64,000 bases of DNA from Candidatus Latescibacterota bacterium (GTDB lineage Bacteria > Latescibacterota > UBA2968), in contig JAYODI010000001.1 in assembly GCA_038279365.1 (NCBI GenBank), forward strand, positions 64,001 to 128,000, written 5' to 3'. The notes under the pieces were generated by a model that was not told the DNA's origin, ran no database searches, and saw nothing but the letters and a program-made list of their open reading frames with translations. The position numbers and the translations under genes are program-made. This document shows, one piece after another, positions 15,322 to 54,052 of this stretch (the first letter of the stretch is position 1; every line of letters begins with the position of its first letter).

Positions 15322-15405
15322 TGCCGAAGGCGGGAGTCGAACCCGCACGGGCTTGCGCCCACACGGCCCTGAACCGTGCGCGTCTACCAGTTTCACCACT
15401 TCGGC
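15322..15405 (-). tRNA. tRNA-Leu (CAG), CCA not encoded
   Basis: Reverse complement GCCGAAGTGGTGAAACTGGTAGACGCGCACGG-TTCAGGG-CCGTG...GGTTCGACTCCCGCCTTCGGCA; long variable arm. Confidence 0.96.
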
Positions 15406-38382: not shown

Positions 38383-38411
38383 TTGACATAGGGGTTTCAA
38401 TCCAGTATTTT
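38383..38411 (+). promoter_or_regulatory. Sigma-70 promoter of the csp pair
   Basis: TTGACA (38383-38388)-17 nt-TATTTT (38406-38411) with AT-rich upstream region. Confidence 0.7.
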
Positions 38412-38424
38412 ATCCTCAATATAG

Positions 38425-38521
38425 ATAGTTGAGCAGTTCTGTTTCCTATGCATGTGATTTAAAAATATGACGAGGCAAGGATCAGAAGTTCAAGTCCTTG
38501 CCGTTTTTGTATTTAAGATAC
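38425..38521 (+). ncRNA. Putative cis-regulatory csp leader RNA (terminator/antiterminator switch), copy 1
   Basis: 93/97 nt identical to copy 2; terminator hairpin 38474-38508; alternative helix 38429-38447 with 38478-38493. Confidence 0.65.
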
Positions 38522-38560
38522 ATTGCATACGTTTTTCAGTAGAAAGGTGGTGAAGTACCA

Positions 38561-38761
38561 GTGGCACAAGGAACCGTAAAGTGGTTTAATGACTCTAAAG
38601 GTTTTGGCTTTATCGAACAAGAAGATGGCGAAGATGTATTTGTACATTTTTCTGCTATCCAAGGTGATGGCTTTAAAACTTTGGCAGAAGGTGATCGTGT
38701 AGAATTTGAAGTTCAACAAGGTCCCAAAGGATTGCAATCTGCAAATGTGGTGAAAATCTAA
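38561..38761 (+). CDS. Cold-shock protein (CspA family)
   Basis: GTVKWFN, KGFGFI (RNP1), VFVHFSAI (RNP2); GTG start behind AAAGGTGGT. Confidence 0.97.
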
Positions 38762-38823
38762 GATCATCTTTATTAAAAACAGCACCGGATAATTTAATCC
38801 AGTATTTTTTAATATTCAGATCA

Positions 38824-38920
38824 ATAGTTGAGCAGTTCTGTTTCCTATGCATGTGATTCAAAAATATGACGAGGCAAGGATCAGAAGTTCAAATCCTTGC
38901 TTTTTTTGTATTTAAGATAC
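38824..38920 (+). ncRNA. Putative cis-regulatory csp leader RNA, copy 2
   Basis: Same leader; hairpin GCAAGGAT-loop-ATCCTTGC followed by T7 (38874-38907). Confidence 0.65.
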
Positions 38921-38955
38921 AATGCAATGTTCTCGTAGAAAGGTGGTGAAGTACA

Positions 38956-39156
38956 GTGGCAGAAGGAACCGTAAAGTGGTTTAATGACTCTAAGGGTTTT
39001 GGCTTTATCGAACAAGAAGACGGCGAAGACGTGTTTGTGCACTTTTCAGCTGTTCAAGGTGATGGCTTTAAGACCTTGTCCGAAGGTGATCGTGTCGAAT
39101 TTGAAATTCAACAAGGTCCCAAAGGATTGCAAGCAGCAAACGTTGTGAAGGTCTAA
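38956..39156 (+). CDS. Cold-shock protein (CspA family), tandem paralog
   Basis: 60/66 aa identical to the upstream csp. Confidence 0.97.
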
Positions 39157-39184
39157 GCGATTCTTCATTAAAATGAGCTGTGTG

Positions 39185-39217
39185 AAAGGATGCTACTTTA
39201 TGTAGCATCCTTTTTTT
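39185..39217 (+). terminator. Intrinsic terminator after csp pair
   Basis: AAAGGATGCTAC-loop-GTAGCATCC followed by T7. Confidence 0.85.
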
Positions 39218-39302
39218 ATTTGTATTTCGGCTACAACACGCGTTATCTTGGCAGACAATGGAAAGCATTGTTGTCATTGGTCAGAAGGAAAGGTATGCAG
39301 AT

Positions 39303-53975: not shown

Positions 53976-54052
53976 TGGTGGGCGATACTGGACTTGAACC
54001 AGCGACCCCCTGCATGTCAAGCAGGTACTCTAACCAGCTGAGCTAACCGCCC
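53976..54052 (-). tRNA. tRNA-Val (GAC), CCA encoded
   Basis: Reverse complement GGGCGGTTAGCTCAGCTGGTTAGAGTACCTGC-TTGACAT-GCAGG...GGTTCAAGTCCAGTATCGCCCACCA. Confidence 0.97.

Follow-up and report, generated by a model that had tools for sequence, protein, structure and literature searches.

A conserved leader of cold-shock genes in Candidatus Latescibacterota, possibly a transcription attenuator with cold-shock protein as its signal

Introduction

Why would the 5' leader of a cold-shock gene be kept more constant than the coding sequence behind it? This question is raised by two csp genes, csp1 and csp2, in a 64,000-nt stretch of a Candidatus Latescibacterota genome (contig JAYODI010000001.1, positions 64,001–128,000; hereafter the window, numbered from its first letter). 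The two genes lie in tandem on the + strand, are the sole two csp genes found in the genome and are each preceded by a leader that is almost the same in both copies. Cold-shock proteins (Csp) are among the most abundant bacterial RNA chaperones. To our knowledge, the control of their genes has been studied almost exclusively in Escherichia coli, Bacillus subtilis and Staphylococcus aureus.

The analysis described here shows the leader to be a genuine cis element, conserved ahead of csp genes in Candidatus Latescibacterota. This compact element (~100 nt) is a candidate for a new RNA family; its phylum has no cultured representatives, and almost all genomes of one order carry it. The leader probably tunes the amount of cold-shock protein made, and its layout would reduce csp control to the decision of one hairpin. 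We propose that it may be a cis-acting transcription attenuator with Csp itself as the signal, a proposal whose chances we regard as even.

Results

Conservation and distribution of the leader

Leader 1 (38425–38521) and leader 2 (38824–38920) differ at four of 97 positions (38460 T/C, 38494 G/A, 38502 C/T and 38503 G/T), as reported in a first-pass annotation of the locus, whose hand count of 22 differences between the 201-nt csp coding sequences is also correct. The coding differences are located at third codon positions (16 of the 66 third positions) and first codon positions (six), and 13 of the 22 sit in amino-acid-preserving codons; the two proteins differ by six amino acids. Tandem copies this similar could be the product of a recent duplication or gene conversion in this genome only, an explanation that the first-pass annotation had set against its own reading. 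The distribution of the leader decides this point. A first alignment (A2) of 26 leaders was converted into a covariance model, R1, which encodes the terminator stem only. R1 matches 52 of the 53 genomes and all 11 genera of the window's order, and the sole genome without a match is a draft that is 91% complete. Class-wide, matches are observed in 54 of 132 genomes, with 29 of 30 in family f1, 22 of 22 in f2, two of three in f3 and none of 76 in f4. A search of a phylum sample (151 genomes) yielded no R1 match in 36 genomes of ten further families. Because R1 finds the leader across the order and in families f1–f3, an artefact of local duplication can be dismissed. Moreover, the csp proteins behind the leader copies share 71–97% identity with csp1. 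Recent gene conversion alone is thus excluded by the conservation of the leader across three families, and a duplication restricted to this genome is refuted as the source of the likeness.

A blastn search over 41 relatives also found leader matches before csp genes in a second family; its tally of 35 of 41 genomes mixes in 20-nt matches to the ribosome-binding site only, and the covariance-model counts are preferred. An exact-pattern scan of all prokaryotes, with one genome per species, retrieved 84 stretches, and 67 of the 80 that are listed also match the full model. These 67 are labelled as Candidatus Latescibacterota or Latescibacteria, in a few cases as 'Gemmatimonadota' (sponge-derived bins), or as unnamed bacteria. 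The remaining 13 of the 80 come from assorted phyla, fail the model and are about as numerous as expected by chance; they were rejected as chance matches. A metagenome scan for the ribosome-binding site followed by csp returned ten loci, none of which matches R1, and added no members to the covariation analysis.

Seven loci labelled Gemmatimonadota or Gemmatimonadetes (L076, L095, L128, L130, L132, L136 and L139) carry full-scoring leader copies. Some of the seven score the same as genomes placed in the window's order, and public label and placement are in conflict there.

The csp start lies 27–78 nt downstream of the model end in 79 of the 80 distinct leader copies. The exceptional copy (L123, 7535–7598) consists of the spacer and terminator without the pyrimidine box and is positioned ~30 nt before a non-csp gene, which we take, from its translated start read by eye, to resemble a GMP synthase or glutamine amidotransferase.

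Anatomy of the leader

The leader is arranged as a promoter, ~20 nt of sequence, a pyrimidine box (GUUUCUGUnUCCUnUGCA), a variable A-rich spacer, a hairpin, a U-tract, a further ~40 nt and a ribosome-binding site (GAAAGGUGGUGA), followed by csp. The promoter is sigma-70-like, TTGAC(A/T)-N16–18-TAnnnT, and precedes 70 of 79 leaders; in these promoter-bearing leaders the median distance from the end of the -10 element to the pyrimidine box is 25 nt. Conservation is unevenly distributed among the parts. Over 78 distinct leaders, mean column conservation is 0.49 in the 5' flank, 0.89 in the box, 0.60 in the spacer, 0.97 in the 5' arm of the hairpin, 0.88 in its 3' arm and 0.83 in the U-tract, and the loop is divided into a 5' half of four bases at 0.87 and a remainder at 0.71. 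The ribosome-binding site is almost invariant over the leaders of three families and is complementary to 11 of the 12 bases of the 16S rRNA 3' end (UCACCUCCUUUC, from two relatives), with a central U-U mismatch. The same ribosome-binding site also precedes csp genes on unrelated metagenome contigs. These observations draw on the window sites together with loci L183 (3045–3062) and L184.

In the window, a promoter is observed upstream of leader 1 (Table 1), from which a transcript of the csp1 unit would be expected to start near 38418. The tandem csp arrays of the window's genus, with two or three genes, have a consensus TTGACA-17-TAT(T/U)(T/C)T promoter before the first leader only. Their downstream leaders (window 38780–38815; L005 and L006) keep the -10-like part, and the consensus -35 is gone.

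A strong promoter, a terminator that places the U-tract ~90 nt from it and high sequence conservation would also suit a small RNA, either a Csp-titrating decoy or a base-pairing RNA, for which readthrough into csp is secondary. However, the position of the leader copies is fixed relative to csp in all cases but one, that one csp-less copy is partial and lacks the box, no free-standing copy was found among the copies collected, and the downstream copies in tandem arrays have no consensus promoter. We consider a small RNA highly improbable.

The terminator hairpin

Each window leader contains a hairpin followed by a U-tract, as described in the first-pass annotation. The hairpins read GGCAAGGAU / CAGAAGUUCAA / (G or A)UCCUUGC(C or U) and run into U-tracts of GUUUUUG in leader 1 and UUUUUUU in leader 2. 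The stem change at 38494 preserves pairing (U-G to U-A), and the leader 2 element scores 94.3 bits with R1. The hairpin is supported throughout the family. For its 10-bp stem, the alignment of 78 distinct leaders provides 779 cells, of which 99.0% are paired, versus 22–59% with slid partners, and compensatory changes are found in five of the ten pairs, with the path from G-C through G-U to A-U visible. None of 500 shuffles attains the observed value on any of five measures. The predicted hairpin energies lie between -7.9 and -18.4 kcal/mol for 23 of the 24 representatives and reach -4.2 kcal/mol in the most distant one, and the T columns of the U-tract are nearly invariant in both the 26-leader and the 78-leader sets. 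The assignment of the leader hairpin as an intrinsic terminator is secure at the level of predicted structure, and the element is a textbook one apart from its rather large loop. A tRNA T-loop-like reading of the loop (GUUCAAGUCC) was dropped by eye, as only one closing pair fits.

The alternative helix

The first-pass annotation had also proposed a second fold, in which 38429–38447 (UUGAGC-ag-UUCUG-uu-UCCU) pairs with 38478–38493 (AGGA-u-CAGAA-GUUCAA), and the two segments are indeed complementary. The upstream strand has the conserved pyrimidine box as its core, and its UUGAGC part is a genus-specific extension. The downstream strand lies within the terminator, so that the helix would act as an antiterminator. 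When the window leaders are cut before the 3' arm of the terminator, the RNAfold minimum-energy fold is exactly this alternative helix, with energies of -20.5 and -20.1 kcal/mol, z-scores of -3.2 and -2.7, and 0 and 2 of 200 shuffles equal or better.

On the leader alignment, the alternative fold was tested as the helices UUCUG:CAGAA, UCCU:AGGA and UGC:GCA (12 pairs). These are paired in 93.8% of 924 cells versus 33.5–59.5% with a slid partner. RNAalifold on 36 nascent leaders returns box-to-arm pairs exclusively, at a weak consensus energy of -1.35 kcal/mol, and in the nascent minimum-energy folds of 22 of 24 representatives at least nine arm or loop bases are paired with the box region. Two double changes are seen, both from C-G to U-A. 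One is shared by 15 sequences of genus g5 (UUUUG:CGAAA), which can form, by sequence, a 12-of-14 helix in a shifted register. The other is found in the most distant member, in which the box, 5' arm and 3' arm have changed together (UCUU / AAGA / UCUU). The genus-level helix UUGAGC:GUUCAA tolerates C-to-U and AA-to-GG changes as wobble and contains one G-C to A-U double change. One-sided changes in the terminator stem number 61 on the 3' arm versus two on the 5' arm; this bias, like that in conservation, fits a 5' arm that would serve as a strand with two partners.

Several observations weigh against a competing fold and against the attenuator built on it. Double changes occur in two of the 12 antiterminator pairs and amount essentially to two events, so the covariation is thin. 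Pair 34/91 is broken in 16 of 77 sequences, 22 of 78 sequences cannot form pair 41/87, and genus g5 requires the shifted register. On two more robust measures, the antiterminator is matched by 63 of 500 and 500 of 500 shuffles, and in the within-genus test of seven sequences 359 of 500 shuffles do as well. Compared with a shuffled upstream part, the nascent folds have z-scores of -2.5 to +0.6 and are not clearly more stable; only two of 24 nascent leaders have at most ten of 200 shuffles equally good, and the nascent-fold z-scores were excluded from the support. The terminator loop measures 9 nt in the majority of members and 11 nt in both window leaders; it exceeds the usual 3–8 nt and is large for efficient intrinsic termination. 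A simple terminator scan omitted both leader hairpins because their loops exceed its 3–8-nt limit. Finally, the leader is not present on every csp paralogue, with four of six, one of three and two of four csp genes carrying it in three genomes.

These points bear on a simpler explanation, in which the hairpin does not switch and serves as a leaky terminator, as a site of processing or as a stem with a stabilising role, with the complementarity of the box a by-product of purine/pyrimidine composition. The weak covariation of the antiterminator and the folding energies of nascent leaders agree with this explanation. It is contradicted by the conservation of the box and the 5' half of the loop over three families, which goes far beyond the need of a plain hairpin, by the tighter constraint on the 5' arm than on the 3' arm and by the low pairing of the slid partners. 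We therefore regard a non-switching hairpin as quite unlikely and a competing helix as likely, with covariation that falls short of proof. Of the covariation that the first-pass annotation proposed to look for in both helices, the part concerning the terminator stands, and the part concerning the antiterminator is thin.

Further pairings were considered and rejected. A third helix between a 5' AAGGA and the UCCU of the box, as an anti-antiterminator, is paired in 67.0% of 306 cells, within the range of its slid controls (38.8–72.1%). Pairing of the 3' part of the box (CUGUGCA) with the region between the U-tract and the ribosome-binding site was rejected as a general feature: in a fixed register, a 7-nt complement is present in one of 78 leaders (2.5 expected), and with the register left free shuffles do as well in a mean share of 0.51. 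In some clades (L075, L018, L057 and relatives), a 7–9-nt complement to the 3' part of the box (UGUGCAG, UGUGCAAUC) can be seen by eye between the U-tract and the ribosome-binding site. The small spacer hairpin AUGU/AUAU of the window's genus has four pairs that are invariant in the genus and is hence uninformative either way. Ribosome-mediated attenuation through a leader peptide was dismissed by inspection; an AUG precedes the hairpin in some members, but its third base is not constant among the leaders compared (GAUGC, GAUUC, GAUAC) and its frame differs between clades.

Balance of the two folds and temperature

Of 24 full-length minimum-energy folds, 16 contain the terminator and seven, including those of both window copies, the antiterminator. 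Since the full-length folds are split in this way, the two states are close in energy. Equilibria were predicted for 21 leaders at 4, 15, 25 and 37 °C. No leader of the 21 gains at least 0.1 in antiterminator probability in the cold, and eight of the 21 gain at least 0.1 in terminator probability; for window leader 1, the terminator probability is 0.07 at 37 °C and rises to 0.73 at 4 °C. The first-pass annotation had suggested folding at different temperatures as a check: the equilibria never move toward the antiterminator in the cold, and therefore a simple cold-opened thermometer is not thermodynamically predicted.

This result bears on a protein-free transcriptional RNA thermosensor, in which temperature alone picks the fold, by way of the kinetics of folding, the speed of the polymerase or the stability of the helices. 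Such a thermosensor would use the same terminator/antiterminator anatomy, and E. coli csp leaders are described as refolding with temperature (PMC13271884; PMC12360218). The antiterminator is made first and could become trapped if the polymerase moves slowly in the cold. However, the predicted equilibria shift in the opposite direction in eight of the 21 leaders and toward the antiterminator in none, and the members behave very differently from one another, which is odd for a shared thermometer. A protein-free thermosensor is in our judgement unlikely.

Transcript contigs across the locus

Fourteen RNA-labelled public runs share half or more of the words sampled from the locus, and the contigs of four runs were mapped. 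The RNA-library contigs cover 38464–39180, with nothing on either flank in any of the four runs. Single contigs cross terminator 1 (38464–38597) and terminator 2 (38863–38992) in each run, and a further contig covers the junction between csp1 and leader 2 (38569–38889 or 38569–38892, four of four runs). The contigs end at 39173–39180 in three of the four runs; in the remaining run, X13, the last listed piece extends to 39092 and the depth is 0 from 39114. Contigs give readthrough molecules only, may include DNA carry-over and cannot show ends or levels. They count on the side against the attenuator, and at most they hint weakly at one csp1-csp2 transcript that reads through both leader terminators. 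Such a transcript would also agree with the lack of a consensus -35 ahead of the downstream tandem leaders, and csp2 is probably reached mainly by readthrough from the csp1 unit. The features of the unit are listed in Table 1.

Table 1. Features of the csp1-csp2 unit in the window
Feature	Position	Strand	Description
csp1-unit promoter	38383–38411	+	TTGACA, 17 nt, TATTTT; promoter scan 10/12
Leader 1 antiterminator 5' strand (proposed)	38429–38452	+	Contains UUGAGC (38429–34), UUCUG (38437–41), UCCU (38444–47) and UGC (38449–51)
Leader 1 spacer	38453–38473	+	A-rich, variable; small local hairpin AUGU/AUAU in window's genus (fold)
Leader 1 intrinsic terminator	38474–38509	+	5' arm 38474–38482, loop 38483–38493, 3' arm 38494–38502
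Leader 1 antiterminator 3' strand (proposed)	38478–38493	+	AGGA-u-CAGAA-GUUCAA
Leader 1 U-tract	38503–38509	+	GUUUUUG
csp1 ribosome-binding site	38542–38553	+	GAAAGGUGGUGA
csp1	38561–38761	+	66-aa cold-shock protein, GTG start; from open reading frame list
Leader 2 antiterminator 5' strand (proposed)	38828–38851	+	Identical to leader 1 counterpart
Leader 2 intrinsic terminator	38873–38908	+	5' arm 38873–38881, loop 38882–38892, 3' arm 38893–38901, seven U
csp2 ribosome-binding site	38938–38949	+	GAAAGGUGGUGA
csp2	38956–39156	+	66-aa cold-shock protein, GTG start
End terminator of csp1-csp2 unit	39184–39222	+	Strong; 13-bp stem, 5-nt loop, T-run; terminator scan

Discussion

A possible attenuator with Csp feedback

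The attenuator proposed by the first-pass annotation is supported in its anatomy, which comprises a promoter, a pyrimidine box, an intrinsic terminator and a ribosome-binding site, and in the ability of the box to pair with the 5' arm and the conserved half of the loop; the covariation expected of the antiterminator is where it is thin. From these features we infer termination, a competition of two folds and Csp as the signal. Transcription would begin ~20 nt before the pyrimidine box (GUUUCUGUnUCCU), with the intrinsic terminator ~35 nt past the box and the ribosome-binding site ~40 nt further. The emerging box could pair with the 5' arm of the terminator and the first half of the loop (UUCUG:CAGAA and UCCU:AGGA) before the 3' arm exists. 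With the antiterminator formed, the polymerase would proceed into csp; with the box kept from pairing, the perfect terminator hairpin would form and the transcript would stop at the U-tract. Free Csp would occupy the single-stranded G-pyrimidine5-G box, block the antiterminator and shut off its own synthesis. In the cold, Csp would be titrated onto structured RNA, leaving the box free and allowing readthrough into csp. The window genome would then have two valves in series, one per csp gene. The candidate Csp target within the leader, as a short RNA, is GUUUCUGUUUCCU.

Csp is favoured as the signal because of the make-up of the box and the behaviour of Csp proteins elsewhere. The box, GUUUCUG, shares its G-pyrimidine5-G make-up with the preferred site of B. 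subtilis CspB, which is described as the pyrimidine-rich 5'-GTCTTTG/T-3' (PMC1904285). CspB and CspD of B. subtilis are reported to promote termination at some terminators (PMC8307031), and E. coli CspA bound to csp leaders is reported to bring premature termination back in the course of acclimation (PMC12360218). Feedback of the opposite sign is predicted by the description of E. coli Csp proteins as antiterminators (PMC8307031), a further point against the proposed role of Csp. In its corresponding form, Csp would melt or prevent the terminator hairpin, giving feed-forward induction, and the box would be conserved for another reason. Positive feedback alone would be unstable, however, and would leave unexplained why the box is conserved jointly with the 5' arm and the 5' half of the hairpin loop, and why these parts co-change in two lineages; we consider feed-forward induction very unlikely.

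The attenuator with Csp as its signal can be carried one step further, to an intrinsic-terminator 'Csp-stat' in which Csp gauges its own free level through a G-pyrimidine5-G box that is also the 5' strand of the antiterminator. We put this forward tentatively and with more doubt than confidence. Family f4 and metagenome contigs of other uncultured lineages have unrelated csp leaders of their own, and if the Csp-stat reading holds, premature termination in the leader would be a widespread and repeatedly invented form of csp control, beyond E. coli.

Comparison with known systems

A search of the leaders against Rfam found no family at an E-value of 1 or better except RF01766 (cspA), which stays below its cut-off. 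RF01766 scores 54.9 and 45.7 bits on the window and 28.8–61.6 bits on six relatives, versus a gathering cut-off of 78, and the well-aligned part of the window alignments is the coding region and 3' terminator. Because of these scores and because the leader lies outside the well-aligned part, the leader is not a member of RF01766. The only above-threshold Rfam matches in the window are two tRNA genes (15322–15405 and 53979–54052, both on the - strand). Literature searches on csp leaders and attenuation and on Latescibacteria cold shock returned no description of the leader. The term 'csp' is absent from two surveys of attenuators and novel RNAs, whose supplementary tables could still list a similar motif. 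The first-pass annotation did not recognise the leader as a described family, and the Rfam search agrees. Its novelty is limited in another respect, as csp leader switches that respond to cold and CspA are known in E. coli, where they depend on Rho (PMC12360218).

Other csp leaders were observed alongside this one. Many csp genes of family f4 (L164–L178, five genomes) have a different leader, with a UUGGCAGUCGUUC box, one to several GUAG-n-CUAC mini-hairpins with UUCC-like loops after it and no obvious U-tract terminator; this may be a second, unrelated csp leader family. Metagenome csp contigs with the same ribosome-binding site (L187 and L190–L195, from other lineages) carry unrelated hairpin-plus-U-tract leader elements, such as CCACGAAAG...CUUUCGUGG followed by seven U immediately before the ribosome-binding site.

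Another described set of csp leaders likewise has conserved boxes, with Csp proteins that promote termination at certain intrinsic terminators, and is not known to contain a terminator/antiterminator pair.

In mode of action, the proposed attenuator resembles protein-controlled terminator/antiterminator attenuators, of which TRAP at trp is an example from Gram-positive bacteria. PyrR at the pyr operon is another (PMC8307031). In both, an RNA-binding protein covers RNA that would form the antiterminator, and the terminator forms. PyrR and TRAP are other proteins with other sites, whereas the regulator proposed here is the product of the regulated gene and a general single-strand binder. If Csp is the signal, such a general binder would act as a specific autoregulator through the antiterminator strand.

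The closest comparison is with the csp leaders of enterobacteria. Like the leader described here, the RF01766 cspA thermoregulator is a structured csp 5' leader with alternative folds; it differs in acting on translation, as a thermosensor in the E. coli cspA mRNA (Giuliodori 2010, as cited in PMC13271884). The cspA, cspB and cspG leaders of E. coli and Salmonella are also described as Rho-dependent transcriptional switches (Delaleau et al. 2024, Mol Cell 84:3482, via PMC12360218), in which premature termination in the csp leader is decided by alternative folds, the kind of control proposed here. According to the same source, cold relieves termination in these switches and Csp binding restores it, a negative feedback that parallels the Csp feedback proposed for Candidatus Latescibacterota. 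The enterobacterial switches are described as requiring Rho and a Rut site, whereas the Latescibacterota leader has an intrinsic hairpin and a U-tract, an arrangement that argues for a mode of termination other than the Rho-dependent one. The Latescibacterota leaders are ~145 nt in length versus ~160 nt in the E. coli type, have no sequence likeness to them, belong to a different phylum and are known from sequence alone. If Csp is the signal, the leader would be an intrinsic-terminator counterpart of the Rho-dependent csp switches of E. coli.

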